Assembly: GCA_029556545.1 (NCBI GenBank)
Contig: JAKQEQ010000193.1
Span: 15,262 to 79,261 of the forward strand
Length of the DNA stretch: 64,000 bases
Origin: Candidatus Hydrogenedentota bacterium
GTDB lineage: Bacteria > Hydrogenedentota > Hydrogenedentia > Hydrogenedentales > JAGMZX01
Reading direction: 5' to 3'
Position numbers and translations under genes: made by a program. Position 1 is the first letter of the stretch; the number at the start of each line of letters is the position of its first letter. A model generated the notes under the pieces. It was not told the origin of the DNA. It did no database searches and saw nothing but the letters and a program-made list of their open reading frames with translations. Below, one piece after another: positions 219 to 64,000 of this stretch.

Positions 219-600
219 GAACAAGCAGACGCCGAGGATTTCACAACGCCGCTCATTTTCCAATTTATTTAGAAATAGCATATTCAGTACGCCGTCCAGC
301 GAATCGCCTTCCTGCTATGATGCGCTCATCTTAGCAGAGATTCTCCGGTTTTGCAACAACATATTGCGTATCTCACGCAGGGTATAACTACATATGGCCA
401 GGACGGCCCTGCGGAACGCTTGAGGAGTTTTCTCTTGACAACAAGACGCCCCGGCTCCCGGACATGCCGCACCTGCCCGCCGAAGAACCGGGTCCAACGG
501 CGGCAGCGTGCCGCGCGGCCATTGACTGCATCGCGCGCGCCGGGGTACCCTGCGGCGCATGGGTCGTTGTTGGCGAGCGTATCGAAAGGGGATCAGTCCA

Positions 601-16048: not shown

Positions 16049-16222
16049 CTCAGGCTAAAGCCTGCACTACAAACACGCACTGGCTCTCCATCTTTCTTTG
16101 CATTTCTTTGCGCCTTTGCGCACGGCGATGGAAGACCCGCCCCAAGTCGCAAAGGTCGCCAAGGCGGCGGCGGACTTGGTACTGTCATGTGCGGGGGCAA
16201 AGACGCAAGGAGATGTGACGCG

Positions 16223-49771: not shown

Positions 49772-51343
49772 TCACTGGGCCATCATCTTGCGGCAGTAGG
49801 CGGCCATGCGATCGCGGTGATCGTCGTCCCGTGAGGCGACATTCGGCTGATCAATGACTGGGGCGTTCTCGTCGAGGTAGGTAGGGGGCAGATCGTCGAA
49901 ACTGCGCCATGCTTCGATGGCCCGTGTGAGCGCCTGAATCTCGTCCCGGCAGGCGGGATCGTCGTACCGATCATGGACCTCGGCGGGATCATGCTCGATA
50001 TCGAAGAAGAGCGATTTGCCGTGTTTCCGTGACAGGAGCAGTTTGCGTGTTCCTGTTCGCGCCATGGCATGGGTGCCGCCGGCGCTCTCGGCAAACACGT
50101 GGTCACGTCCGATGTCCTCGGCGGCGAGGTCGATCCCGCGCATGCCGTCGGGCACCGCGCAGGACGCCTGTCGGAGGATGGTCGGCGCGACATCGATATT
50201 CGACACCATGGCCTGCGAGACGCGGCCGCCGAACTTGCCGGCGGGGTACTTGATAATGAGCGGGACTTTCACGAGCGGGTCGTACATGTAGTTGCCTTTC
50301 AAAAGCATGTGATGGCAGCCCAGGTACTCTCCGTGATCGCTTGTGTAGATGATCATTGTGTTGTCATACAAGCCCTTGCGCCGCAAGACCTCGATCATGC
50401 GGCCCACCTGGTGGTCGATCTGCTCGATGCTTGCGTAGTAATACGCCATTACCCGCTGGAGTGCGGCGACCGTGAGACTCTCGTGCGGGAAGTAGCCGCG
50501 GTGCAGTTCGAGGTCGTGAGGCAGGCAGGCGTCCGTCCAGCCCGGCAGCAGCGACAGCGCGTCGGGCTCATATCTCTCGGCCCACGACGCGGGGGGGTCA
50601 AACGGGTGGTGCGGCTTGATGAAGCCGACCATGAGGAGTTGGCCGGACGTTCCCCAGCCCTCGATGGTCTCGACCGCGTGATCGCCGATCCACTGGGTCG
50701 AGTAGAAGGCGTCCGGGAGGTTGGTCGGCAGCGCGCCGAAGGTTTGCCAGTACTCGGGCCGCGCGCGGTCCCGGTACTCCTTGCGTTGATCCTCAAGATC
50801 GTTCCTGTCGACGAGCCCGGCGTCCCGTAGCGCCCGGTGATAGTCGTCGTCCCAGCGTCCCGGCCCGTCCTGCTCTGACAGTATCATCTCCTCGAAACCC
50901 ACATCGAGATAGGTGGGGGTGAAGTGCATCTTCCCCACGGCCTTGGTTGGATACCCGGCGTGTTTCAGCACGGAAGGAAAGGTCTCGGTCCCCGGGAACA
51001 AGGTGCAGTGGTTTGTCCAGCCGCGATGCTCGTGAACGTAGCGCCCGGACAGGAGCGAGTAGCGCGACGGCGTGCAGACGGGGTATGGGCAGAAGCTGTT
51101 CTCGAAGCGCACGCCGTCGGTGGCTATCGCGTCGAGGTGGGGCGTGCGAATCTCGTTGTTGCTGTAAGCGCCGAGGCACTCGATCCGATGCTGGTCCCCG
51201 TGGATTAGCAGCACGTTTGGCCGCGCCGCCGTGCGTGCGGATGCGGTTGCAGCGTCGTCCTGTGCGCGGGCGCACACCGACGCCCCGGCGAGTGTGGCCG
51301 CCGCCGAGCCCAGGAAACCGCGTCGGTCTATTCTGTCCGCCAT
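49772..51343 (-). CDS. sulfatase (arylsulfatase-family) with Tat signal peptide
   Basis: Internal ATG 51343 with RBS ggagaggagg. DRRGFLGSAAATLAG Tat motif. Sulfatase signature CTPSRYSLLSGRY (C-x-P-x-R formylglycine motif) and GKMHF. The 1162-aa track ORF is rejected upstream of this start. Confidence 0.9.
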   Translation of the reverse strand: MADRIDRRGFLGSAAATLAGASVCARAQDDAATASARTAARPNVLLIHGDQHRIECLGAYSNNEIRTPHLDAIATDGVRFENSFCPYPVCTPSRYSLLSGRYVHEHRGWTNHCTLFPGTETFPSVLKHAGYPTKAVGKMHFTPTYLDVGFEEMILSEQDGPGRWDDDYHRALRDAGLVDRNDLEDQRKEYRDRARPEYWQTFGALPTNLPDAFYSTQWIGDHAVETIEGWGTSGQLLMVGFIKPHHPFDPPASWAERYEPDALSLLPGWTDACLPHDLELHRGYFPHESLTVAALQRVMAYYYASIEQIDHQVGRMIEVLRRKGLYDNTMIIYTSDHGEYLGCHHMLLKGNYMYDPLVKVPLIIKYPAGKFGGRVSQAMVSNIDVAPTILRQASCAVPDGMRGIDLAAEDIGRDHVFAESAGGTHAMARTGTRKLLLSRKHGKSLFFDIEHDPAEVHDRYDDPACRDEIQALTRAIEAWRSFDDLPPTYLDENAPVIDQPNVASRDDDHRDRMAAYCRKMMAQ

Positions 51344-51499
51344 GGGATGCCTCCTCTCCGCCAGTATACCTAGCAAGCAGCCGCGCTGCGATTCGCACGT
51401 TTCGACATGCATCGCCGGATATGGCCTGATAGAATAGCGCTTGGGGCTTGGTGACTGTGGTTCCCGCGACATCGGCCCAATAACGGAGTACTTTCGCCC

Positions 51500-52558
51500 A
51501 TGAACTTGCCCTTTTCCGACCATGACCACCCCGAGACCGCGTTCGCGTTGGCGGCGGTGCGCGCGGCGGCCCGGTTGACGACGCGCGTGCGCGCGGAGAT
51601 GCCGCACGCGAAGATCACGAAGACCGACTTGAGTCCGGTGACGGTGGCGGACTTCGCGGTGCAGGCGTATATCGCGCGTGCGCTGGCCGAGGCGTTTCCC
51701 GGGGACGCGCTGGTGGGGGAGGAGCGCGCGGCGGCCCTCGAAGCGGACGACGGCGCGGCGATGCGGGCGCTCGTGGCCGAGTTCGTGCGGGAGGAAGCGC
51801 CGGATGCCACTGAGGCGCGGGTCTGCGCCTGGATCGAGCGGGGCGCGGGCGCGGCGGAGGGGCGGTTCTGGGTCCTGGACCCCGTGGACGGGACGAAGGG
51901 CTACCTGCGCGGCGGGCAATATGCCATTGCCTTCGCGCTCATCGAGGACGGCGTCGTGCAATTGGGCGTGCTTGGCTGCCCCGGTCTGGATGCGCAGTGT
52001 CGTCCGGCGGAGAACGGACCGGGCGCGTTGCTCGTGGCTCGGCGCGGCGGGGGCGCATGGTGTGGTCCCCTCGCGGATGGTCCCGGCGAATTCGTGCAAT
52101 TGCACGCGTCGGACTGTGCGGACGCGCGGCGGGCGCGTCTCTTGCGGTCTTTCGAGGCAAGCCACACGAATGAAGGGCAGATTGAGGCCATCGCCGCGCG
52201 ACTCGGGCTTGCCGCGCCGCCCGTGTTGATGGACAGCCAGGCGAAATATGCCGTGCTGGCCGCGGGCGGCGGCGAGTTGATGCTGCGCCTCCTGTCGCCG
52301 AAACAGCCCGACTACAAGGAACGCATCTGGGACCAGGCGGCGGGGAGCATCGTGGTCGAGGCGGCGGGGGGACGGGTCACGGATCTGTGCGGTCATCCGT
52401 TCGATTTCAGCGCGGGCCGGTTGCTGGAACGGAACACCGGCGTATTCGCGTCGAACGGACCGCTGCACGACGCGGGGCTCGAAGCGATTGCGGCTCTGGG
52501 GACTGGCACAAGCGACCCCGCGCTTCGCGGGGGAGACGTGCCTGTCCTCCCAAGTTAG
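51500..52558 (+). CDS. 3'(2'),5'-bisphosphate nucleotidase / inositol-monophosphatase-family protein (CysQ/HAL2-like)
   Basis: WVLDPVDGTKGYLRG and the metal-binding pattern typical of the PAP phosphatase family. It is divergent from the sulfatase gene. Confidence 0.8.
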   Translation: MNLPFSDHDHPETAFALAAVRAAARLTTRVRAEMPHAKITKTDLSPVTVADFAVQAYIARALAEAFPGDALVGEERAAALEADDGAAMRALVAEFVREEAPDATEARVCAWIERGAGAAEGRFWVLDPVDGTKGYLRGGQYAIAFALIEDGVVQLGVLGCPGLDAQCRPAENGPGALLVARRGGGAWCGPLADGPGEFVQLHASDCADARRARLLRSFEASHTNEGQIEAIAARLGLAAPPVLMDSQAKYAVLAAGGGELMLRLLSPKQPDYKERIWDQAAGSIVVEAAGGRVTDLCGHPFDFSAGRLLERNTGVFASNGPLHDAGLEAIAALGTGTSDPALRGGDVPVLPS

Positions 52559-52708
52559 CCCCAGTCCCCCCAAGTTTGGGGCCGCTTGCGCGGCAAGCGG
52601 GTTGCCTGCTAGTATCCGGGAGGCCGGTAAGTATGCCGGGAGTGTCCCCGCGCGCGGAGAGGCGCGGACCACGGGCGGGACGCCCGTGCCACGAAGAGAG
52701 GGTACAAC

Positions 52709-53710
52709 ATGTCCAGGCGATGGTGTGTGGCCGCAACGGCGTGCGCTTTCTTGGCGTTGGTCGCGGCGGATGCCCAGGCGCAGTGGCGCTGGACGCCGCA
52801 GACGGGCCGTTTTGTAAACATCAAGAATCTGCCGAAGGAAACGCCGGAGATTCAGGTCGAATATGCCCGGGGCTTGTATATGAACGGGCGCTATAAGGAG
52901 GCGTACCGGGAGACGGAGAAGTTCGAGCAGTTCTACAGTGACACGGAATACGCGGACGACAACCAGTTCCTCCGCGGCGAAATCCGGCTGGCCCAGGGCA
53001 AGCACCTCGCCGCCGCGCGCGAGTTCCAGCAGGTCATCGCGAATTATCCGGACAGCGACCTTTTTGACGCCGTGATCGCGAAGCAGTACGAGATTGGCGA
53101 CGGGCTCTACGACCTGGGCACGAAGCGGGCGTTGCGGTGGTGGCCGATGTTCCGGCATCGCCCGCTCAAGCGGGCGGCCGAGGTGTATGGGATGGTCATC
53201 CGCAATCAGCCGTTCACGACGGCGGCGGCCGAGGCGCAGTACAAGGTGGGCCTGTGCCACTTCGCGCGCAAGGCGTACCTGGAGGCGGCCTACGAGTACC
53301 GGCGCGTGATCGAGGATTACGCCGGGTCCGAGTGGGTGGACGAGGCCGGCGAAGGGCTGGCCTTGTGCTACTACCGCATGTCCCTCCCGCCGGAATACGA
53401 TCAGGCCCCGAGCGAGTTGGCCATCAACGCCATCGACGATTTCAAGGCCCGTTTCCCCGAGGATGCGCGGGTGGCGGACCTCGACGGGAAACGCGTCGAG
53501 ATGCGGGAAAACATCGCGATGCAGCGGCTGGTTACGGCGCGGTTCTACGAGCGGCGCCGCGAGTTTCCGGCGGCGCGGTTATGCTATGAGGTGGTCGTCG
53601 AGCAGTTTCCCGAAACCGAAGCGGCCAAGGGCGCGCAGAGGTGGATCGACGAACACCCTGGCGTCGAGAGTCCGTTCAGCAAGGGCATCGGTCGCGAAAG
53701 CCGGGACTAG
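52709..53710 (+). CDS. bamD: outer-membrane assembly lipoprotein BamD-like (TPR-type)
   Basis: Signal peptide, then TPR-like repeats with YEIGDGLYDL, AQYKVGLCHF and the YEYRRVIEDY pattern seen in BamD/YfiO. It is followed by lptE and holA. Confidence 0.7.
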   Translation: MSRRWCVAATACAFLALVAADAQAQWRWTPQTGRFVNIKNLPKETPEIQVEYARGLYMNGRYKEAYRETEKFEQFYSDTEYADDNQFLRGEIRLAQGKHLAAAREFQQVIANYPDSDLFDAVIAKQYEIGDGLYDLGTKRALRWWPMFRHRPLKRAAEVYGMVIRNQPFTTAAAEAQYKVGLCHFARKAYLEAAYEYRRVIEDYAGSEWVDEAGEGLALCYYRMSLPPEYDQAPSELAINAIDDFKARFPEDARVADLDGKRVEMRENIAMQRLVTARFYERRREFPAARLCYEVVVEQFPETEAAKGAQRWIDEHPGVESPFSKGIGRESRD

Positions 53711-53713
53711 GGC

Positions 53714-54280
53714 GTGATATCCGGAATGCGATATGCGGTGTCAAGCGCGTTACTGTGCGCGCTGCTCGCAGGCTGCGGCTACACGACGGAGAGCACCCTC
53801 CCGACAAAGTACCAGACGGTCTTTGTCTCGACATTCAAGGACATGAGCCCCCAATACGACTTGCAGGCCCCGCTCACGAACGCGCTTGTGCGCAAGTTCA
53901 TCACCGACGGGCGGCTCCAGGTGGCGAAGCGGGACGATGCGGACCTCGTGCTTGAGGGCGCCATCCTCGACTATCGCATGAAGGGCCTGACCTTCGACCA
54001 GGCGGACGATGTGACCCAGTTTGTGGTCGTCGTCGCGGCGGCGGCGCGTTTAACCGACGCCGAATCCGGCGAAGTCCTCTGGGAAGACCCCCTCATGGCC
54101 GGGGAAACGACGTATTACACCCGCGCGGCGGGGCAGTCTTCCGACCGGCTGCGCGGCAACGCCGAGGTCTTTCTGCCGACCGTGCGGTCCTTTTCGACCG
54201 AAGAGGAGAACCGGGCGGCGGCGGAGGCGCTCGAACAACTAGCCTCCGACATCTTCTACCGCACGGTGGAGCCGTGGTGA
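53714..54280 (+). CDS. lptE: LPS-assembly lipoprotein LptE-like
   Basis: Lipobox LLAGCGY, about 188 aa, located immediately upstream of holA (a conserved lptE-holA neighbourhood). Confidence 0.65.
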   Translation: MISGMRYAVSSALLCALLAGCGYTTESTLPTKYQTVFVSTFKDMSPQYDLQAPLTNALVRKFITDGRLQVAKRDDADLVLEGAILDYRMKGLTFDQADDVTQFVVVVAAAARLTDAESGEVLWEDPLMAGETTYYTRAAGQSSDRLRGNAEVFLPTVRSFSTEEENRAAAEALEQLASDIFYRTVEPW

Positions 54281-54284
54281 GGGC

Positions 54285-55328
54285 GTGCAGGTTCAGGAAT
54301 TCCTAGACCGCTTCAATCCGGGGCGCGTGCCCCCGGTCGTCTTGTTGTGTCCGGGAACCGCGGGGAAGAGCAAGAACGTCACCTTCGAGCCCGTAAGAGC
54401 CCAGCAAGCGGCCGATCGCATCGTCGAGGCCTTCATCGACCCTTCCCTCCGCGACCTCGCCTATGCCTTGTACTACGGAGACGAAGCGGACCCCGCCGGC
54501 GTGGTTCTCGAAGCGCAGACGCTCCCGTTCCTCGCCGACCGGCGCGTCGTCGAGGTCCGCAACGCCGATGTCTACGAAACCGAAACGCGCGGGAAGGCGA
54601 TCCACGCCTATCTCGCGTCGCCCAACGAGACGACCGTGCTAATCCTCGTTGCGTCGCGCATCGACCGGCGACTCAAGTTCTTCAAGGCGTGCCAGAAGGC
54701 GGGCGAGATCATCGAGTGCCCCGAGTTGTCCGAGAGGGAAGTGCATGCGTGGGTGGGCGAGAGAATGGACACGCTCGGCAAGCGCATCGACGGCGATGCG
54801 GTCAGCGAACTGGTGCGCCGGGCCGGAACGCGCCTCGGCGACGTGAACAACGCCATCCAGGTCGTGGCGGACTACGTGGGCGGCAAGGGGCGCGTGACGC
54901 AGGAGGACGTCGCGGGGGCGTGCGCCGACGTGGCCGAGGAGGAGATTTGGGCGCTCACGGATGCCATCGCCGCGTCGGAAGTGGGCAAGGCCGTGACGGC
55001 GCTGCGGAAGCTGCTCGCGTTTGGGAAAGCGCCCGACGAAATCATGGGGACGATTAACTGGCTGGTGAAAATGACCTACGGGGTTCTTGTCCCCGAGAGC
55101 GGCCAGAAAGTCCATGCTTTCGTGGCGGACAAAGTGAGGAAACTCGGCGACAAGTTCGGGCGCGCCAAGACGCAAGACGCCTTCAAACTTTGCACCAGCA
55201 CCCATTTCATGATGCGCAGTACAGGCGTCGACCCCGAACTCGCCCTCGAATTGCTCGTCATCAAGCTCGCCGCGCCGCGCAAGGCCCCCCAGCCCAAGCG
55301 CGGCGCCGTCTTCAGGGGGCAGTGTTGA
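54285..55328 (+). CDS. holA: DNA polymerase III delta subunit
   Basis: 347 aa with a GTG start; clamp-loader delta fold pattern and gene-order context. The exact start is uncertain. Confidence 0.75.
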   Translation: MQVQEFLDRFNPGRVPPVVLLCPGTAGKSKNVTFEPVRAQQAADRIVEAFIDPSLRDLAYALYYGDEADPAGVVLEAQTLPFLADRRVVEVRNADVYETETRGKAIHAYLASPNETTVLILVASRIDRRLKFFKACQKAGEIIECPELSEREVHAWVGERMDTLGKRIDGDAVSELVRRAGTRLGDVNNAIQVVADYVGGKGRVTQEDVAGACADVAEEEIWALTDAIAASEVGKAVTALRKLLAFGKAPDEIMGTINWLVKMTYGVLVPESGQKVHAFVADKVRKLGDKFGRAKTQDAFKLCTSTHFMMRSTGVDPELALELLVIKLAAPRKAPQPKRGAVFRGQC

Positions 55329-56550
55329 GCGTGTATTCAATGATGACGCCGCGGACTTCTACCTTTCCACCCCCCCAGTCACTTGAGTATGCTGAGCAAG
55401 TAAGACTAGTTGCTTCATTGTTTACAGTCCTTCTTGGGATAGCAACCGTCTTGGCGCCTACTCCGGAAATTCCGGAACTGTCAACTTCAGCCCAAGTGGA
55501 GAAATTACCGTCGAGTGGATAATAACGGGCGAAATTTACAGTCACATCCTCCGTGTGTGTCGGATCTTTATCAAAATACACGGTGAACGAATCGACAATG
55601 GCGCCGTCCGGCAGATTCACCGGCGCGATCATTTTCCCGAAGCCGCTCGAAGTAACACAAAAACCACCGTTACCACCTTGCGAGCTATACTCCGTCGAAC
55701 TCATATTGGGCTGCCATGCTGCGCGATCAATTGAGTAGAAAAAAGTGTACGGACCATGTGTATGCGAACTTGCGGCAAACGCGCTCGCCTGCTGGCCGTC
55801 CAGCGTGTCCGCATCAATGCCGCTTCCTGCACCGTCGTTGGCCAGTATGTGGGGGATGATCTCGCTGTCCAGCGCAAAATCAGTGGCCTGCTGGCCGTCC
55901 AGCGTGTCCGCGTCGAGCCCGCTGCCCGGTCCGTCGCTCGCAAGCACGGTCGGCAGGATCTCGCTGTCCCGCGCGATGGCCGCGTCGATGTAGGCTTGGG
56001 CGATGGTTCCCGCGCGGATGGCCTCGCCATAAATGAAGGCCGCGCTCGTAAGCGTGATATTCTGCGGAATCAGGAACGGCGGAAAGACGCCGCTTTCGAT
56101 GTCGATCGCGTCGTGCGTGTGGGATGCGTTCGCCAAGTCCGCCTTGTGCGCGCCGTCCAGAGTGTCCGCGTTGCCGCTCTGCAGCGCATAAGCCACGGAA
56201 GCGACGCGCCGGCGCGGCGCGAGGTCTTCCCCGTTCACGTTCACGTTCAGCCAGACGCTGTTGCCGCTGAACACCGTGGCGGGAACCAGCAGCGCCGGAT
56301 CGTCGCCAATCATGGTGCTATAGACCCCGTCCGCGTCCGGCGTGACCGTGTCGGCGTCGGAGAAACCGCTGCCGAGTTGTGTGCCGCCCGACTCGCTGCT
56401 CCAGAAGGTGAACGTCACGGTGATCGCGCTCGTCACGGGGTTCCCTGCCGCGTCCGTGATGCGCCCCTGATAGGCAATCAGCCCCGGCGCCGCCAGCGCC
56501 GCTCCACCCAGCGCGATAGCCAGTAGCACCAGACCCATGCTCGCTTTCAT
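55312..56550 (-). CDS. secreted protein with tandem tail-fibre-like repeats (GSGLDADTLDGQQAxxFA) and C-terminal beta-rich domain
   Basis: Signal MKASMGLVLLAIALGGAALAAP. There is an internal 33-aa repeat with a 25-bp identical DNA core (cctgctggccgtccagcgtgtccgc at 55789 and 55888). Confidence 0.65.
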   Translation of the reverse strand: MKASMGLVLLAIALGGAALAAPGLIAYQGRITDAAGNPVTSAITVTFTFWSSESGGTQLGSGFSDADTVTPDADGVYSTMIGDDPALLVPATVFSGNSVWLNVNVNGEDLAPRRRVASVAYALQSGNADTLDGAHKADLANASHTHDAIDIESGVFPPFLIPQNITLTSAAFIYGEAIRAGTIAQAYIDAAIARDSEILPTVLASDGPGSGLDADTLDGQQATDFALDSEIIPHILANDGAGSGIDADTLDGQQASAFAASSHTHGPYTFFYSIDRAAWQPNMSSTEYSSQGGNGGFCVTSSGFGKMIAPVNLPDGAIVDSFTVYFDKDPTHTEDVTVNFARYYPLDGNFSTWAEVDSSGISGVGAKTVAIPRRTVNNEATSLTCSAYSSDWGGGKVEVRGVIIEYTLNTAP

Positions 56551-56590: not shown

Positions 56591-57205
56591 CTAGAGCCCC
56601 GGGCAGAATCCGTCTTCCGTGCCCTCGCCCGGGCAGGCGTGGTAGCCGCCCGAATTGTAGAACTGAATCACACGCAGCAGTTCCGTTAACTTGATCTGCC
56701 AGTCGGGTCCGGACGGGGCATAGTCGCTGGAATGGGGCGCGCAGCTATGGTTGGCGCCCGATCCCGGCACGTAGCCGTCTTCCGTGGAGGCAGGATCGTC
56801 CGCGCAATGAAAGCCGCCCGAATTGTAGAATTGAATGATGCGGAGCAGTTCTGTCAGGTTGATCCGTGAGTTCCCGTCCTGATCGGCGGAATGGCCGCCC
56901 TCGCCTTCGCCTTCGCCTTCGCCTTCTGCTCCGGCGGTGAATGGCGGGACCGTATGCGCAAAACCTCCAAATTCGCGATATGAGGCGGACGCGCCGGTAC
57001 GTGGCAGGAATTCGAGACCAATCGTCGTCAGCGGCGCGTTGAAGGAAGAGGCCATGGACGCCCCGCCGCCGGAGCACAAGACGTCGGTGACCAGGTCATA
57101 GCTGGCGCTGGAAGCGGCCTGAACAGGGCATGGCAGGAAGAACATCGCGGAAAACGCCGCGACAACGCCTAAAGGAAATGACCATCCGCATCGAAGACAT
57201 GTCAT
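56591..57205 (-). CDS. secreted protein with (Glu-Gly)n linker and two dockerin-like Ca-binding repeats
   Basis: Signal peptide, then AEGEGEGEGEGG, then DQDGNSRINLTELLRIIQFYNSGGFHC and a second copy IKLTELLRVIQFYNSGGYHAC. RBS aggggg before ATG 57205. Confidence 0.65.
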   Translation of the reverse strand: MTCLRCGWSFPLGVVAAFSAMFFLPCPVQAASSASYDLVTDVLCSGGGASMASSFNAPLTTIGLEFLPRTGASASYREFGGFAHTVPPFTAGAEGEGEGEGEGGHSADQDGNSRINLTELLRIIQFYNSGGFHCADDPASTEDGYVPGSGANHSCAPHSSDYAPSGPDWQIKLTELLRVIQFYNSGGYHACPGEGTEDGFCPGL

Positions 57206-57749: not shown

Positions 57750-58103
57750 CTACCCAGCATTCTTCGAGGAACGCTTGCCCTCGGTCTCGCCGTCCGGCGC
57801 CGCGTCTTTCTCCGGCAGGTCCCGCATAGCGCGGATGGCGTCGATGCCTTGCCAATACTCATGGAGCGCGTCGCGGCCCGCGGCGGTGATGCGAAACTCG
57901 GTGTGGGGGATGCGCCCGTTGAAACTCTTCTCGACCTCGACGAAACCAGCCTTTTCGAGCTTGTCCATGTGCGACGAGAGGTTGCCCTTTGTCAGCCCCA
58001 GTGTGCTGAGTAGGAAGCTAAAGTCGACCACGTCCACCCCGGAGAGCAGCGTCAGGATACGCAGGCGCGCCGGCTCGTGTATTGTGCGGTCGAGGTCCGT
58101 CAT
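57750..58103 (-). CDS. winged-helix transcriptional regulator (HTH_34/PadR-like small regulator)
   Basis: HEPARLRILTLL...LTKGNLSSHMDKLEKAGFVEVEK...RITAAGRDAL is a wHTH pattern. It overlaps the upstream membrane protein gene by 4 nt (ATGA). Confidence 0.75.
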   Translation of the reverse strand: MTDLDRTIHEPARLRILTLLSGVDVVDFSFLLSTLGLTKGNLSSHMDKLEKAGFVEVEKSFNGRIPHTEFRITAAGRDALHEYWQGIDAIRAMRDLPEKDAAPDGETEGKRSSKNAG

Positions 58104-58870
58104 GCGTCCTCGTCTCCGTCACGATCCTCCGCCGGCTCGTCTTCGAGGCCGGACCGCGCAAGCCGGCGCAGTTTCCACAGGGCGTAGCGGCTGTAGACGT
58201 GGCCGATGATGATGGCCGCCAACCCATACCCGAATACGGGCACAATCATGTTGAGAATGGTCCACTCGCCGGTGAACCGAATGGGCAGGTCCGTCAAGAG
58301 CAGGACCGCGTGCAGCGCGTAGAGAATGGGCCAGAACCATGCCCAGAAGCCGAGCCCCTGCGCGTAAATCATGTACATGAGGAACGGCGCCATATACAGC
58401 GCCGAGAAGGGTTGCAGGTTTCGCAGCGCGAGGTAATTCAGGCTCACGAGCAGCGCGCCGACGAGATGATAGATCACGAGGCCGCCGCCGAGCGTGGTGA
58501 GCAGCCACGGGCGCGCAGGACCATCGTGATCGTGGTCCTCGGAATAGGATACGTAGCCTTCCTGGCCGTAGAGCCACTGCGTGATCCGGAAAATCAGGTC
58601 GCCGCCCCAGGGCGACAACGAAAACCAGGTCAAGACGATGATCATCAGCCCCATGAACGCGACGGACACGTACACGAGCACGGCATTGTTCGATTGGTAC
58701 GCCATGTTGGTCAGCGCCGCCGTGATCCCGATAACCACCACCATCGCGACAATGAACACCCATTGAACCAGAAACGAAATGGTGCGGCTCTTCGCGTAAC
58801 GACGCGCCCATCGCACGATGAGGCGCGGATCGCCCGCCTGAAAATCCTGGGAAGTGCTGTTGCGGTTCAT
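58100..58870 (-). CDS. hypothetical integral membrane protein co-transcribed with the wHTH regulator
   Basis: Internal ATG 58870. About 6 TM helices and an acidic C-terminus EDEPAEDRDGDEDA. Confidence 0.65.
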   Translation of the reverse strand: MNRNSTSQDFQAGDPRLIVRWARRYAKSRTISFLVQWVFIVAMVVVIGITAALTNMAYQSNNAVLVYVSVAFMGLMIIVLTWFSLSPWGGDLIFRITQWLYGQEGYVSYSEDHDHDGPARPWLLTTLGGGLVIYHLVGALLVSLNYLALRNLQPFSALYMAPFLMYMIYAQGLGFWAWFWPILYALHAVLLLTDLPIRFTGEWTILNMIVPVFGYGLAAIIIGHVYSRYALWKLRRLARSGLEDEPAEDRDGDEDA

Positions 58871-59172
58871 TCGGCCTATGCTCCTCCATCCCCTGCCTTC
58901 CCGCGTTGTAACACACGGCCTAAGGCATGTCAAGACAACAAGATAGCCCAATCCGCCGCGCATCCGGCAAGGCGCGTGCCGCGTGGCATGGGCATCTTGC
59001 CCAAGTCTTGATCACGGGCGGGACGCCCGTGCCGCGCCCGCCTGGGAAGCCCGTCGCCCCCCGGCGTGTTGTTTCAAAGAGTTCATAATGTTAAGATTTC
59101 CATGCGGGCCGGCACACCCCGCGTCATGCTGCATGGTGATATGTCTGGGAAGGAAGAGCGGAACTCGTGCTC

Positions 59173-62100
59173 ATGGATGCCGCATTGCGCCCTAGGAAGG
59201 GGAGCTTCCTGCTGACCGTTCCGGCCGCGGTCTGCCTGCTTCTCGCGGGCATCGCCGCGTCCGGGCAGGAGACCGTCCTCACGCTCCAGCGCGTCGTCGA
59301 AGGCAACGGCACGTACCTGCCGGGCAGCGCGGTGGATTTCACGGTCACGTTCGATAAGTCGGGGCCGGACGACGTCACGCAACTTGGCTTGGAGGAGACG
59401 ATTCCCGACGGTTGGACCTTTGACTCGCTCCAGGCCGGCGCGCTGCCCGAGGTGTCGCCCATGCCGGGCGATTCCGGGACGTTGTCGTTTGCCTATTTTG
59501 CGGTTCCCGCGCTTCCGGCCAGTTTCACGTACCGTCTCAACGCGCCCGCGGACGCGACGGGGCCCCAACAGATTTCCGGAGTGGCGCTCTACGGCACGGG
59601 CGGCCCGCCATTGCAGGCCGACCCGGTCTTGACAACTATCGATGAAGGAACTGCGGGCGAAGGTGAAGGCGAAGGCGAAGGCGAGGGCGAAGGGGAAGGC
59701 GAGGGCGAGGAACTAGTGTTGGCGCGCTTTGTGCCCGCAGGTGAATACAACCCGGGAGGTCGCCTGGACATTCGGGTAACGCTGCTGTACGGTGGCGCGG
59801 AAACGGTGACTTCGCTCGCGCTTGCGGAGACGCTCCCGGCGGGCTGGAGTTTCCATTCCTTGGTCTCCGGGGCTATGCCCCAGTTCGCGCCCGCCGTCGG
59901 CACGACGGGCACGATAGATTTCGGATGGCTATTGATTCCATCCTTTCCCGCAACCTTTACGTATCGCGTGAATGTGCCCTCGGGAGCCGCCGGTACACAG
60001 GTGATCTCAGGTCAGGCGGCCTATCGCACCACGGGCGATGAAATGTTCTCGAACGTCGTGGTCACGGATGTGCCCGAGGGCCCGCCGGCCAGCGAGGGGG
60101 AGGGCGAAGGCGAAGGCGAGGGGGCAGGAAATATGGCCTTGAGCCGCGTCCCTGTGGGCGGTCCAGCGTATAGCCCGGGCGCGGCGGTGGACCTGACAGT
60201 GACGCTGAGCTACGGGCTTGCGGATGCGGTTACCGCGCTCGCGCTCGAAGAAACCCTGCCGGCCGGGTGGACCTTCGATTCCATTACCTCGGGCTCGGGT
60301 GCGAACATCAATCCCGCGGCGGGGTCTTCCGGCACGCTGCAATTCTTGTGGGTCGTGGTGCCCGCTTTTCCGATCACGTTCACCTATCGCGTGAATGCGC
60401 CCGCGGGGGCGACCGGCGATCACACCGTCTCCGGCGTCATCATATACCGTACCACCGGCGACGAATTGCGCACCGACCCCGTGCTCACGGTGCTCGAAGA
60501 GGCGCAAGACCCGAATCTCCTGCCCGTGGCGGTCGAACCGCAGGAACAGGCTTACGCCGGTCAGCCCATCGTCGTGCGCTGGATCGTCACTAACGCGAGC
60601 AACAGCCCCGCGCCCGCAACGTGGCAGGAATGCGCCTACCTGTCCATGGACGACCAGCCGGGAGACGACCTTCTGCTGGGCTGCGTCACGCGCGAACGCG
60701 ACGCCGGTCCCGGCGAAACCTACGAGGTGCGTGCCGAATTCCCCTTGCCAGCGGTCGATGTCGGAGAGTACTGGGTTATCGTCGTTACGGACGACGGCGA
60801 CGCCGTGGCCGAGTCCAATGAGGATGATAACGTTATCGTCTCGGCGCCCATTACGATTGAAACCGTCAATTATGCGGCCACCGTGACGACGTCCGTGACC
60901 AAGGCCGCGGCGGGCACGACTGTGCCGTTGACTGGAGAGGCCCATTTTCTCGCGAGCGGCGCGCCCGCGCCGAACGTACCGGTGGCGGTCGATGTCGAGG
61001 TCCGCGGAATTCATCGCGTCTTTACGGTTCAGACAAACGGCTCCGGACAGTTCAGCCTCACCTTCACGCCGTTGGCCGCCGAGGCGGGTGCATACACCGT
61101 CGGCGCGAAGCACCCCGGCATCGTCGTGACGCCCATACAGGATACATTCACGCTCGCGGGGCTGGCGTTGGACCGGCCCGTGGCCGCCTTCGATCTCGCG
61201 CCCGGAATCCCCGTCGAGGCCGTATTCGAACTCCGCAACCTCGGCGATACGCCTCTCACGGGTCTCTCGGCGAGTGTCGCGGGATCGCCCGCCAACGTGA
61301 CCGTGCACGCCGAGGTGGACCCCGACCTGCCGCCGTTGGGTTCGGGGACGGTAATGGTGACGCTCGATGCGCTGAACGACAGCGTGACCACGGGACAGGC
61401 GACCTTGACCGTCAGTACTTCCGAGGGAGCTACCGTCGCGCAGGAAATTCAGTTCCGTGTCTTGCCGGCAGCGGTCGACTTGCAGGCGGCGCACGTGCCG
61501 TTGCGCGCGGGCGCGGCCGCCGGCGCGCAGACCTTGTACAGCTTTCAACTCACAAACGCCGGCGGCGCAACGGCCGCAGGCTTGACCGTATCCCCACCAG
61601 CATCGTTGCCGTGGGTGCATGTCGTCGCCCCGTCGCGGCCCGTGGACCTGTTCCCCGGCGAGTCGGTCGAAGTGACCGTACAGTGTCTCGCGCCCGCGGG
61701 ACAGCCCACCGGCGTTGTCTCCGGGCAATTGACCTTTCTGTTCAATGAAGGCCAGTCGCGCGTAATGACCCTGCAAATCAGGGTGAGCGCGACGGACGCC
61801 GGTGACCTATATGTCTGGGTCAAAGACGATTTCGGCGCGGTGGCGGACGCCGCAGTGGTGTTGCGCGACCCGTTCACGGGCGGCGAGACGGCAACACAAA
61901 CGACGAGTGCCACGGGAAGCGCCTTTTTCGAGGGCATCGCGGGCGGCCCGTACAACTTCGAAGTGCGCACTCCTGATCATGGCGACTATTACGGTGCAAC
62001 CGAGGTGCGGCGCGGCGCGGCGCGCCACGAGGAAGTCCGGCTCCATCGCGATCTCGTGCAGCAGGAGTGGACCGCTCTCTTGCCCTTCGACGGCGGCGCC

Positions 62101-64000
62101 ATCCACTACGCGGCGGACAACCGGCTTGCGGCGACCCTTGGTCCCGCCCTCGTGATGGACCCGCCCCTGGTCGATTTGCGCGCCATGCGTGACCCGACCA
62201 CGCAAATCGAGATAACGGTGGTGAACCAGGGGCTTGCCTCCGCGCACGGGGTTCGACTCCTGTTGGCCAACCACCCCCGATTCGTCTTTCAGACCCTCAC
62301 AACCGAACTGGGCAGCCTTACCCCCGGCGGCATTGTTCGCGTGCCCGTGCTAGTCACCGATACCGCCTTCGGTCTGGGCGACATCGCCGACGACTGCTCC
62401 GTCGTCGAGCCGTCCGGCGTCATTTACTATTGGGACCAAGACGATGCACCGGATTGGCGGCGCGAGCCGGCGGCCCTGCGCCTCCCCATGGCCGTATGCC
62501 CGGACGCGCCGCCCGCGTTCGGATTGCTCACCATGGACACGGCGGATATGTCGGCGTACACGACCCGCCCCGTGTTCCGCGTCGGGCTCGGCTGCGCACC
62601 GGACTCGGGCGAGGAGACCGTGATCACGCTGACGCGCACGCCCTCGGGCGGCGGCGTCTACACCCCCGGCGGCGCCGTGGACCTTACCATCGAGTTGAGC
62701 GCCACGGGCGGAAAGACGATTACCGGGCTCGGCGTCGAGGAAAACCTCCCGGCGGGATGGACCTTCGATTCCGTCGTCGGCGGTTCATCGCCGCCGCCGT
62801 TGACCTCCCCGGCGGGAACCGAGGGTACACTGGCCTTCGCCTGGATTTTCGTCCCGCCCCGGGACCAATTCCCCATCAACTTCACGTACCGCGTCAACGT
62901 GCCCCCCGGCGCGACGGGCGTGCAGACTGTCTCCGGCGAGGGCATCTATTACACCGACGGCCCCGAATTGCGCACGGGCGTCGTGACGACGGACCTGACG
63001 CCCGTGGGAAAGAGCATGATGACGGCGGCGCGACCAACCGGACGCCTGAAAGCGGATGCGAGCGAAGAGCCGTGTGTCGCGGCGGAATTCCAGGTCGCGG
63101 CAGCGGCGGTATTGCCGGGACGGTCCTTTGAAGCCGCGTTGGCGCTGGCCAATGACGTGCCCGACGAAGACCTCTTGAATGTGCGGATCGACCTGATTGT
63201 TCGCGACGAGGCGGGCGTGAATGTCACCGATCGTTTTACCGTTGCGGTGGACGTCCTGGAAGGCTTGCCCGACCTCGCGGGCGGCGGCGACCTCGAATCC
63301 GGCGCGGACGCGGTGGTGCGGTGGCGCGTCACGCCGCTGGCGGCCGCGGCGGGCGCGAACGTCCGCGCTTACCAGGTCGGTGGGCGGGCGCGCTTCCGCG
63401 TCAGCGGCGTCTCCGTGACGCTGCCGTTCTATCCCGAGGTCCTGTTGGTGCATCCCCAGGCGTCACTGCAAGGAACACTGTTTTTCCCGGACGAAACCTA
63501 CGCGGACGACCCGGCCACCGCCGAGGTCGAGGCGGCGGACCCGTTCGAGGCGGCGCTACTGCTCCGCAACACGGGGGTCGGCAACGCTTACGGCGTGACG
63601 GCCTTCGGCTTGACGCCACAGGTTACGCATATTGACGACGGGCTCTTGCAGCCCTTCGAACTGATCGCGACGTATGCGAACCACGACCCCGTGACAACCG
63701 CCCTCGCCGCCACCCTCGGCAACGTCGCCCCGCAAGCCGCCGCCGCGGCGACCTGGACTCTCGCCGGCGCGTACACCGGCTACATGGGCGGCCTCGATGT
63801 TCTGATCGCGCGGGAAGACCCCGAAGGCCGCGCGTTTGTCGCGCCGCTGAGCATCACACAGACATACAATCTGGTGCGTGTCGTGCGGGCCGACCTGCCC
63901 ACGGACGACGGCGTCCCCGATTTTCTGCTGAATGAAGTGCCGGATGCCGTGCCGGACCTCTTGCACACGAGCACCGGCCAGCAGATATTCGTGTCGAACG
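59173..64000 (+). CDS. giant cell-surface protein (partial, over 1600 aa, continues beyond window): four LPAGWTFDS-type repeat domains, (Glu-Gly)n linkers, a CARDB-like domain, a carboxypeptidase-regulatory-like domain
   Basis: ATG 59173 with signal-like LLTVPAAVCLLLAGIAASG. I verified the frame by hand at eight checkpoints to the window end and saw no stop. It is absent from the ORF track (no stop in window). CARDB signature VIVVTDDGDAVAESNEDDNV; CarboxypepD_reg-like DLYVWVKDDFGAVADAAVVLRD...GPYNFEVRTPDHGDYYG. Confidence 0.8.
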   Translation, partial: MDAALRPRKGSFLLTVPAAVCLLLAGIAASGQETVLTLQRVVEGNGTYLPGSAVDFTVTFDKSGPDDVTQLGLEETIPDGWTFDSLQAGALPEVSPMPGDSGTLSFAYFAVPALPASFTYRLNAPADATGPQQISGVALYGTGGPPLQADPVLTTIDEGTAGEGEGEGEGEGEGEGEGEELVLARFVPAGEYNPGGRLDIRVTLLYGGAETVTSLALAETLPAGWSFHSLVSGAMPQFAPAVGTTGTIDFGWLLIPSFPATFTYRVNVPSGAAGTQVISGQAAYRTTGDEMFSNVVVTDVPEGPPASEGEGEGEGEGAGNMALSRVPVGGPAYSPGAAVDLTVTLSYGLADAVTALALEETLPAGWTFDSITSGSGANINPAAGSSGTLQFLWVVVPAFPITFTYRVNAPAGATGDHTVSGVIIYRTTGDELRTDPVLTVLEEAQDPNLLPVAVEPQEQAYAGQPIVVRWIVTNASNSPAPATWQECAYLSMDDQPGDDLLLGCVTRERDAGPGETYEVRAEFPLPAVDVGEYWVIVVTDDGDAVAESNEDDNVIVSAPITIETVNYAATVTTSVTKAAAGTTVPLTGEAHFLASGAPAPNVPVAVDVEVRGIHRVFTVQTNGSGQFSLTFTPLAAEAGAYTVGAKHPGIVVTPIQDTFTLAGLALDRPVAAFDLAPGIPVEAVFELRNLGDTPLTGLSASVAGSPANVTVHAEVDPDLPPLGSGTVMVTLDALNDSVTTGQATLTVSTSEGATVAQEIQFRVLPAAVDLQAAHVPLRAGAAAGAQTLYSFQLTNAGGATAAGLTVSPPASLPWVHVVAPSRPVDLFPGESVEVTVQCLAPAGQPTGVVSGQLTFLFNEGQSRVMTLQIRVSATDAGDLYVWVKDDFGAVADAAVVLRDPFTGGETATQTTSATGSAFFEGIAGGPYNFEVRTPDHGDYYGATEVRRGAARHEEVRLHRDLVQQEWTALLPFDGGAIHYAADNRLAATLGPALVMDPPLVDLRAMRDPTTQIEITVVNQGLASAHGVRLLLANHPRFVFQTLTTELGSLTPGGIVRVPVLVTDTAFGLGDIADDCSVVEPSGVIYYWDQDDAPDWRREPAALRLPMAVCPDAPPAFGLLTMDTADMSAYTTRPVFRVGLGCAPDSGEETVITLTRTPSGGGVYTPGGAVDLTIELSATGGKTITGLGVEENLPAGWTFDSVVGGSSPPPLTSPAGTEGTLAFAWIFVPPRDQFPINFTYRVNVPPGATGVQTVSGEGIYYTDGPELRTGVVTTDLTPVGKSMMTAARPTGRLKADASEEPCVAAEFQVAAAAVLPGRSFEAALALANDVPDEDLLNVRIDLIVRDEAGVNVTDRFTVAVDVLEGLPDLAGGGDLESGADAVVRWRVTPLAAAAGANVRAYQVGGRARFRVSGVSVTLPFYPEVLLVHPQASLQGTLFFPDETYADDPATAEVEAADPFEAALLLRNTGVGNAYGVTAFGLTPQVTHIDDGLLQPFELIATYANHDPVTTALAATLGNVAPQAAAAATWTLAGAYTGYMGGLDVLIAREDPEGRAFVAPLSITQTYNLVRVVRADLPTDDGVPDFLLNEVPDAVPDLLHTSTGQQIFVSN
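59656..59709 (+). repeat. (GAAGGC)n hexanucleotide microsatellite encoding (Glu-Gly)9; shorter copies at 60094-60126 and (minus strand) 56898-56927
   Basis: ggcgaaggtgaaggcgaaggcgaaggcgagggcgaaggggaaggcgagggcgag. The unit length of 6 keeps the frame on expansion or contraction. Confidence 0.8.

Follow-up and report, generated by a model that had tools for sequence, protein, structure and literature searches.

What is encoded at the right-hand end of the 64,000-nucleotide (nt) stretch of Candidatus Hydrogenedentota bacterium contig JAKQEQ010000193.1 (assembly GCA_029556545.1, positions 15,262 to 79,261; hereafter the window), where one reading frame opens at position 59173 and runs off the edge? 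A first-pass annotation, made from the letters alone, had placed a giant repeat-domain surface protein here, said to be missed by the open reading frame (ORF) list, and had grouped it with four upstream genes into a cell-surface module. We found that the gene is real, complete and stand-alone, and that it is the largest gene in the window, coding for a very large repeat-domain protein that is predicted to be secreted. The window holds its 5' 55%, and the whole product (2,931 amino acids (aa), strongly acidic, lysine-poor, all-beta) is probably a fibrillar-adhesin-like surface protein of a diderm member of Hydrogenedentota.

Translation of frame +1 from ATG 59173 to 63999 gave 1,609 codons and zero stops, as had been reported in the first pass. 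The nearest in-frame stop on the 5' side is located at 59137-59139, and only two start candidates, GTG 59167 and ATG 59173, precede the hydrophobic segment. GC content at the three codon positions was 0.685/0.513/0.796, with the same pattern in each 600-nt block to the window end; because this pattern is typical of genes in high-GC genomes, the coding sequence was considered real. The long antisense ORF lying wholly within the gene (Table 1) has a codon-position GC that mirrors the sense frame and is therefore a shadow frame. In this region the mechanical ORF list shows nothing but antisense and off-frame ORFs, since by definition frames running past the end of the source are not listed; the explanation given earlier, that the frame has no stop in the window, was correct. 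For similar scans, the lesson is that the largest gene can become invisible when it runs over an edge, and that in high-GC DNA long antisense shadow ORFs take its place. Upstream of the ATG, an AT-richer dip (GC 0.48-0.52 at 59050-59125) is followed by a Shine-Dalgarno-like GGGAAGGAAGAG at 59147-59158. A sigma-70 consensus scan of 59050..59172 gave no match, and searching the divergent intergenic region and the 3' end of the gene for promoters, terminators and repeats yielded nothing above chance.

The remainder of the gene was recovered from metagenomes. Contig Ga0116143_10009743 (L006), obtained in a metagenome scan, is identical to the window over its final 2,682 nt (0 mismatches), and in it the frame continues to a stop that lies 3,968 nt beyond the edge (extended coordinate 67966-67968), giving a protein of 2,931 aa. 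The extension proposed in the first pass thereby reached the stop, adding an array of PKD domains, a region shared with one homolog (P0002) and a C-terminal tail. A search for exact matches to the neighbouring regulator retrieved a 355-kb contig from another sample, Ga0116237_10000029 (L018), which over 20,354 nt departs from the window plus L006 at 1 base, a synonymous change in codon 1624; the same kind of search with the 204-aa protein encoded upstream gave a 1.4-kb contig only. On this contig the Joint Genome Institute (JGI) gene caller predicts a gene of exactly 2,931 residues from the same ATG, so routine annotation does find the gene. Its absence from the ORF list is true, but this is a window-edge artefact, and besides the JGI call a homolog with 43% identity is present in nr. 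Three independent short assemblies (L019, L020 and L021), all identical to the window, stop within the gene's 5' third (at aa 704, 676 and 179), which suggests that the internal repeats of the gene fragment short-read assemblies. No length variation of the (EG)n microsatellites was observed among four assemblies, which are identical over the region and evidently derive from the same population.

The homolog in nr (P0001, 'PKD domain-containing protein [Candidatus Hydrogenedentota bacterium]', 2,764 aa, C-terminally truncated) is the best one, followed by P0002 (2,782 aa, 34% identity). Among GTDB representative genomes, only distant relatives were found, with 29-47% identity over parts. Several proteins encoded in the window have exact matches in NCBI metagenome-assembled genomes named Candidatus Hydrogenedentes/Hydrogenedentota.

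The giant protein comprises, in order, a putative signal peptide, three CLIPPER/DUF11-like immunoglobulin-like (Ig-like) domains, a conserved block 1, a fourth CLIPPER-like domain, a conserved block 2, 11 PKD domains, the region shared with P0002 and a tail made of GD, a helix and RRRR. At the N-terminus, the basic n-region residues R6, R8 and K9 are followed by a hydrophobic core of 18 residues (Kyte-Doolittle maximum 2.47) and an AAS/G site, and by this heuristic reading the signal peptide suggested in the first pass is a credible prediction. Self-BLAST identified four copies of a domain of about 125 aa (aa 34-168, 181-303, 321-444 and 1149-1275) with pairwise identities of 44-54%, together with (EG)8 and (EG)5 linkers, in line with the three copies of about 130 aa, the (EG)n linkers and the additional fourth copy described before. 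Pfam scanning of the window part placed DUF11 (PF01345; 58.4 bits, cutoff 24.6), NPCBM_assoc (62.8 bits in 4 stretches) and CARDB (PF07705; 32.3 bits, cutoff 22.7, best stretch aa 510-555) above their cutoffs, and relatives score higher for CARDB at the homologous position. TIGR01451 (19.5 bits, cutoff 24) stayed under its cutoff, and DUF7507 was weak at aa 780-837 (20.1 bits, cutoff 27). The DUF11 or conserved-repeat type, the CARDB domain and the Ig-like stretches of the first-pass annotation were thus recovered. Its carboxypeptidase-regulatory-like domain fared less clearly: CarboxypepD_reg (PF13620) at aa 883-953 reached 24.5 bits, under the 32.3 cutoff, whereas P0006 (39.7 bits) and P0092 (32.6 bits) exceed it at the equivalent position. 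Block 1 contains CARDB (aa ~455-560), Ig-like stretches, the CarboxypepD_reg-like segment (aa 883-953) and a further domain in which two Cys residues are conserved as a pair.

Beyond the window, 11 consecutive PKD domains occupy aa ~1711-2745 with a period of ~93 aa; in the L006 extension, PKD_4 scored 337 bits and K319L-like_PKD 375 bits, with 11 stretches each and above cutoffs (PF18911 / PF22352 / PF00801). The ~110-aa region after this array matches P0002 only (E 6.7e-22), and from its sequence pattern we read it as fibronectin type III (FN3)-like. The whole protein has a net charge of about -180 and a lysine content of 0.3-1%.

Pfam and NCBIfam scans found no catalytic family in the window protein or its extension, which bears on whether the chain could be a giant secreted hydrolase, a protease or glycosidase carrying accessory Ig domains. 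JGI labels two relatives (P0006 and P0079) 'subtilase family serine protease', the Pfam name NPCBM_assoc derives from alpha-galactosidases, and NPCBM_assoc and CarboxypepD_reg often accompany enzymes as accessory domains. However, neither Peptidase_S8 nor another catalytic Pfam family occurs in the giant protein, the extension, P0006, P0079, P0092 or P0058, the two regions modelled below are pure beta-sandwiches, and a PDB sequence search with the window protein returned no match, so that we give a hydrolase hardly any credence. The 'subtilase' label of P0006 and P0079 was rejected, as both are devoid of a Peptidase_S8 domain.

Table 1. Coordinates of the giant gene, its parts and the neighbouring genes in the window
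Feature	Position	Strand	Basis or remark
Giant gene, in-window part (aa 1-1609 plus one base)	59173..64000	+	No stop; GC3 0.80 versus GC2 0.51; L006 and L018
5' untranslated and likely promoter region	59050..59172	+	Composition profile and sequence; promoter assigned by inference
Putative Sec-type signal peptide, aa 1 to ~31, MDAALRPRKGSFLLTVPAAVCLLLAGIAAS|GQ, no lipobox	59173..59265	+	Heuristic reading; equivalent N-termini in homologs
DUF11/CLIPPER-like Ig domain, copy 1, aa 34-161	59272..59655	+	Self-BLAST, local hidden Markov model (HMM); Pfam DUF11 best stretch aa 45-88
(EG)8 linker, aa 163-178, in-frame hexanucleotide microsatellite GGCGAA x8.8	59656..59708	+	Same length in four assemblies
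DUF11/CLIPPER-like Ig domain, copy 2, aa 181-303, zero lysine	59713..60081	+	Self-BLAST, local HMM
(EG)5 linker, aa 308-317, hexanucleotide microsatellite x4.7	60092..60123	+	In-frame, GGCGAA-type
DUF11/CLIPPER-like Ig domain, copy 3, aa 321-444, zero lysine	60133..60504	+	AlphaFold2 model, Foldseek, repeat profile
Conserved block 1, aa ~454-1066	60532..62370	+	Pfam, local HMM; colinear matches in P0001, P0002, P0005, P0006, P0029, P0031, P0033, P0034 and P0037
DUF11/CLIPPER-like Ig domain, copy 4, aa 1149-1275, within the variable inter-block insert	62617..62997	+	Self-BLAST, local HMM
Conserved block 2, in-window aa ~1293-1609 of ~1293-1712	63049..64000	+	AlphaFold2, block-2 profile; extends in L006 as far as ~2990
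Antisense shadow ORF, 589 aa, not a gene	60007..61776	-	Codon-position GC 0.785/0.517/0.678, mirror of the sense frame; wholly within the giant gene
Multi-pass membrane protein, 256 aa (JGI call), no family match	58100..58870	-	Gene call, library scans
HTH_34/ArsR-type winged-helix regulator, 117 aa	57750..58103	-	Pfam; 4-nt overlap with the membrane-protein gene
204-aa secreted protein	56591..57205	-	(EG)6 microsatellite linker at 56896-56926
412-aa secreted protein, repeated 'GSG(L/I)DADTLDGQQA' motifs	55312..56550	-	Library scans

The nature of the repeat was addressed by structure comparison. The AlphaFold2 model of copy 3 is an 8-strand beta-sandwich of high confidence (predicted local distance difference test score, pLDDT, 96.5). 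Among PDB structures, Foldseek ranked 9ifr first (E 1.4e-5, template-modelling (TM) score 0.61), which is the CLIPPER domain from a fibrillar adhesin of a Gram-negative bacterium, and the next neighbours are SpaD pilin, the Cna/ACE collagen-binding domains, integrin thigh and calf domains and cohesin modules. In addition, a repeat profile searched against PDB sequences gave 9ifr_A as the sole significant match (E 5.6e-4). DUF11 has been renamed CLIPPER, a CnaA-like domain that is typical of the stalks of fibrillar adhesins; the crystallised CLIPPER contains a K715-N806 isopeptide bond with D748 as the catalytic residue, and the bond is missing from some DUF11 domains (doi 10.1101/2025.04.25.650565).

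An alignment of 44 copies from the giant protein and its relatives was inspected for these residues. Lysine reaches at least 30% in no column, copies 2 and 3 contain zero lysine, the first-strand position is Arg in 82% of the copies, and no conserved Asn occurs at the isopeptide partner position. An acid, the Glu of 'EETLP', which is aligned with the region of the catalytic Asp748, is retained in 91% of the copies. An isopeptide-stabilised CLIPPER was rejected because the alignment has no conserved lysine. Judged from the aligned residues, the 'LPAGWTFDS domain' of the first pass is an isopeptide-less CLIPPER/DUF11-type domain, in which the Lys-Asn bond cannot form. A putative signal peptide with three CLIPPER-like domains behind it recurs as the N-terminal head of 18 relatives (P0008-P0021 and P0023-P0026), and P0022 has five CLIPPER-like copies. 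The middle parts of the relatives sharing this head differ from that of the giant protein and contain DUF5011 and HYR domains.

The two blocks are colinear with distant giants (P0005, P0006, P0028, P0029, P0031-P0034 and P0037) at 24-28% identity. Block 2 had no Pfam or NCBIfam match in the giant protein or in any relative scanned. The AlphaFold2 model of its in-window part (aa 1276-1609; pLDDT 83.8) forms two beta-sandwiches, and its fold neighbours are only generic Ig, RbmA and MG domains, pilins and CLIPPER. An exhaustive HMMER search with a block-2 profile over 1.84 billion cluster representatives (clusters at 50% identity) retrieved at least 3,418 protein clusters at E <= 1e-3, with 2,198 at E <= 1e-30. 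Two word-indexed database searches with block 2, one with the single sequence and one with the profile, returned P0044 only, and their pool was probably dominated by low-complexity words. Block 2 is nearly always present as a single copy, in proteins of 2,000-7,500 aa. Both blocks occur in 117 of the 164 block-2 proteins in hand, most of the others being short fragments, and block 1 lies upstream of block 2 in every one of these (117/117), with a median gap of 374 aa. The core members use differing export tails, with P0028, for example, carrying a type IX secretion system (T9SS) Por_Secre_tail.

The two top-scoring block-2 representatives are animal proteins: XP_006822956.1 of Saccoglossus kowalevskii, with 7,485 aa and a type-I membrane tail, and KAK7084501.1 of Halocaridina rubra, which has teneurin-type EGF domains. 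Single-copy conservation at such depth would imply a specific activity, be it towards a defined ligand, in self-association through an interface or in a mechanical role. A reading that goes further, possible though in our estimation somewhat doubtful, makes the ~1,500-aa unit of block 1, insert and block 2 the functional heart of an unnamed family of giant extracellular proteins, beyond a stalk, and adds an undescribed C-terminal sorting signal of Hydrogenedentota that is handled by an enzyme. It is based on the at least 3,400 clusters, the single copy, the lack of a family for block 2, the export and anchor systems that vary by phylum and the two invertebrate proteins. Being widespread, reaching into animals and having its second block outside Pfam and NCBIfam, the two-block core could deserve follow-up.

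The protein ends in '...PAAATVGD-SLVFLAAGTTLLLVA-RRRRQTASARPAPGRKTGT', that is, GD, a 15-residue hydrophobic helix and RRRR, with the C-terminal 40 aa encoded at 6520-6647 of L006. Comparison of the C-termini of P0008-P0026 and P0041 revealed a tail common to 17 Hydrogenedentota-type relatives, in which 10-13 small residues connect '(G/S)C(S/A/G)' to an invariant '(G/A)D', followed by a hydrophobic helix of 14-18 residues and an Arg/Lys cluster, RR(K/R)R. The giant protein has the GD-helix-RRRR part and no Cys nearby; in P0002, 'PAAAT' precedes the helix and the end is basic. A tripartite layout of motif, helix and basic cluster is a hallmark of processed sorting signals in diderms. By analogy, the tail of the giant protein and its relatives may be such a signal. 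With the curated NCBIfam CTERM models, the best scores on the relatives' tails were 12.8 bits for JDVT-CTERM and 12.2 bits for MYXO-CTERM, and the giant protein's own tail reached at most 9.6 bits, whereas a control tail, P0043, scored 22.7 bits for IPTL-CTERM against a cutoff of 20.5. This recurrent surface-protein tail of Hydrogenedentota, lying outside all curated sorting-signal models tried, could also deserve follow-up.

Where the protein resides depends on the envelope of the organism. LptE, a BamD/YfiO-like TPR lipoprotein and DNA polymerase III delta (holA) are encoded in a row at 52709-55328 (+) of the window, and because of the LptE and BamD/YfiO-like genes the organism is regarded as a diderm with a lipopolysaccharide outer membrane. 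In such a cell, the helix could be a permanent anchor of an inner-membrane-tethered, periplasm-spanning envelope protein, with the body remaining inside or underneath either the outer membrane or a coat of S-layer type. Consistent with this, the tail fits no curated sorting-signal model, the Cys motif seen in 17 relatives is absent from it, and no secretion-system genes lie nearby. However, a chain of 2,900 residues with ~25-30 Ig-like domains far exceeds the width of the periplasm, members with the same core in other phyla carry T9SS sorting domains, which points to surface export, and the layout of the tail resembles that of processed signals. A periplasmic location is thus considered unlikely.

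Several observations weigh against a fibrillar-adhesin-like surface protein, which we nevertheless prefer. The signal peptide was judged by eye alone, and a Sec signal and a C-terminal helix alone would leave the protein of a diderm periplasmic and tethered to the inner membrane. None of the curated CTERM models (PEP-, MYXO-, GlyGly-, IPTL-, JDVT-CTERM and others) exceeded its cutoff on the tails of the giant protein or its relatives, and no sorting enzyme or dedicated secretion genes were found near the giant gene. Specifically, within about 69 kb of readable genome, exosortase, rhombosortase and CPBP families were absent among the ~16 window genes scanned with Pfam and the genes called in L018, a scan that left out most genes before 40 kb. 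Moreover, Pfam and NCBIfam revealed no known family of adhesive (ligand-binding) domains in the giant protein, and the conservation of the core from bacteria to animals hints at a function more specific than spacing or adhesion. Tandem Ig-like stalk domains, by which fibrillar adhesins and fibrillar adhesin-like proteins are recognised (Monzon et al., PMC8286594), are present as 11 PKD and four CLIPPER-like domains. Since no known adhesive domain was found, 'adhesin-like' is here a class assignment by architecture.

For the preferred surface protein, the following mechanism is proposed. The Sec system would export the protein, and the C-terminal helix with its Arg cluster would hold the C-terminus at the membrane; alternatively, by analogy with PEP-, MYXO- and GlyGly-CTERM, the tail might be a sorting signal processed by an enzyme en route to the surface. 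The membrane-proximal array of 11 PKD domains would act as a stalk, probably tens of nanometres long, that holds the two-block core and, with it, the CLIPPER-like triplet of the N-terminus at a distance from the cell. The triplet would consist of the isopeptide-less variant, without the stabilising Lys-Asn bond, and the distal core and triplet could contact a ligand such as another cell, a polymer or a particle. Hydrogenedentota has no cultured member (PMC11406978), and two genome papers on the phylum (PMC10866078 and PMC11406978) make no mention of adhesins or surface proteins. The giant gene adds one adhesin-like surface protein to this uncultured phylum; the class is known and the gene is already in public gene calls. 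The result is useful for annotation and not surprising.

The four genes upstream of the giant gene are all on the minus strand (Table 1). The regulator and membrane-protein genes are translationally coupled and form a pair divergent from the giant gene; a 544-nt gap separates this pair from the genes of the two secreted proteins, and the gene downstream of the giant gene encodes an enoyl-CoA hydratase. The shared 302-nt intergenic region has the AT-richer dip, with no significant promoter match and no clear operator-like palindrome. In the homologs' contigs (L013 and L014), P0001 is flanked by genes for a GFO/IDH/MocA oxidoreductase and a Flg_new_2 protein, and P0002 by Wzy_C, TPR, histidine-kinase and sigma-54 response-regulator genes; the neighbourhoods of these two closest homologs are unrelated to that of the window and to each other.

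These data do not uphold the five-gene cell-surface module of the first-pass annotation, in which the giant protein would be co-regulated and act together with the two secreted proteins (204 aa and 412 aa) and the winged helix-turn-helix regulator/membrane protein pair. The genes are adjacent, and the giant gene and the membrane-protein/regulator operon diverge from a common intergenic region of ~300 bp. Furthermore, the 204-aa protein also has an (EG)n microsatellite linker, and the 412-aa protein looks fibre-like, with a weak Bdello_MAT_N match and tail-fibre PHROGs. However, the upstream genes lie on the opposite strand, the homologs' neighbourhoods differ, the downstream gene encodes an enoyl-CoA hydratase, the 544-bp gap splits the upstream genes, and the intergenic region lacks an operator-like palindrome or significant promoter pattern. 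The (EG)n linker is the sole feature common to the giant protein and a neighbour, and since such linkers are widespread in relatives, it does not tie the two genes specifically. A five-gene module therefore seems quite improbable, while regulation of the giant gene by the divergent regulator is conceivable.

The 204-aa protein contains a tandem pair of 'LTELLRxIQFYNSGG(F/Y)H...EDG(F/Y)xPG' modules. This module also forms the C-terminus of P0035, P0038 and P0039, and no match to it exists in Pfam, NCBIfam, PHROGs or PDB. The first module opens with a loop like the calcium-binding loop of EF-hand or dockerin (DQDGNSRINLTELL). JGI calls the protein from an internal Met (184 aa), which would remove its signal peptide. 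One may ask whether the CLIPPER-like domains form a cohesin-dockerin-like scaffold that binds the 'LTELLRxIQFYNSGGYH' double module of this neighbour and of P0035, P0038 and P0039. Such binding would agree with the cohesin modules that lie near the repeat in the fold comparison (TM 0.61-0.65), with the EF-hand/dockerin-like loop and the arrangement as a tandem pair, as in dockerins, with the precomputed EF-hand Pfam families of P0038, and with the adjacency of the 204-aa gene. Yet neither protein has a Pfam Cohesin (PF00963) or Dockerin match, the fold likeness is generic to beta-sandwiches, with equal or better CLIPPER and pilin matches, and the adjacency is not conserved. A scaffold of this kind is very unlikely, and an adhesin-like stalk protein remains the reading that we prefer for the giant gene.

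The 412-aa protein shows weak matches to phage tail-fibre PHROGs (E 1e-6 to 6e-4) and, at its N-terminus, to the NCBIfam model of the mosaic adhesive trimer fibre, Bdello_MAT_N (35.7 bits against a cutoff of 60); to judge from these, it is possibly a trimeric fibre. Elsewhere in the window, the 1,162-aa ORF at 49772-53260 (-) is a high-GC artefact, as the genes called there in L018 are a 523-aa sulfatase and, on the opposite strand, a 352-aa gene of the inositol-monophosphatase family. A 788-aa protein with DUF6259 (335 bits) is encoded at 16187-18553 (+), and a 1,072-aa protein with strong coding statistics and no Pfam match at 351-3569 (+).

How does the giant protein compare with known systems? 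Its two closest homologs, P0001 and P0002, are colinear with it over the full length and share the putative signal peptide, the CLIPPER-like repeats, the EG-rich linkers, CARDB, blocks 1 and 2 and the PKD array. The number of N-terminal repeats is 4 in P0001 and 2 in P0002, compared with 3 in the giant protein. P0001 also has a repeat between the blocks, whereas P0002 has none there; P0002, in turn, shares the post-PKD region, the helix and the basic tail. Both differ from the giant protein in genomic neighbourhood. The Bacteroidota-style proteins P0028 and P0031 (~2,300-2,800 aa) have block 1 followed by a single block 2, as in the giant protein. However, they are only 24-28% identical to it, their N-termini contain Cohesin, DUF5006 and LapA, and they have no PKD array and end in a T9SS C-terminal domain.

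Fibrillar adhesins with a CLIPPER stalk, represented by B9T28_05395 of Acinetobacter silvestris (PDB 9IFR; doi 10.1101/2025.04.25.650565), resemble the giant protein, itself predicted to be secreted, in being long, secreted and multi-Ig, and DUF11 is over its cutoff in the repeat. The isopeptide Lys and its partner Asn are found in 9IFR and not in the repeats of the giant protein. Their CLIPPER domains build a contiguous stalk, whereas those of the giant protein form an N-terminal tip and are separated by EG linkers. Furthermore, their anchor is OmpA-like, unlike the helix and Arg tail found here.

RTX/LapA-type adhesins (LapA, MpIBP and SiiE) are likewise giant and acidic and built of long Ig-like arrays. 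They project binding regions from the diderm surface, using type I secretion, a C-terminal RTX signal and an N-terminal retention module. The giant protein instead has a predicted N-terminal Sec-type signal and a C-terminal membrane helix, and Pfam scans found no RTX or type I secretion features in it. PEP-CTERM, MYXO-CTERM and GlyGly-CTERM are C-terminal tripartite sorting signals of diderms, associated with exosortase, myxosortase and rhombosortase, respectively. The Cys-containing tail motif of the relatives is reminiscent of MYXO-CTERM, whereas the tail of the giant protein is without Cys. The giant protein shares with all three systems a short motif, a hydrophobic helix and a C-terminal Arg/Lys cluster on a chain predicted to be exported by Sec.

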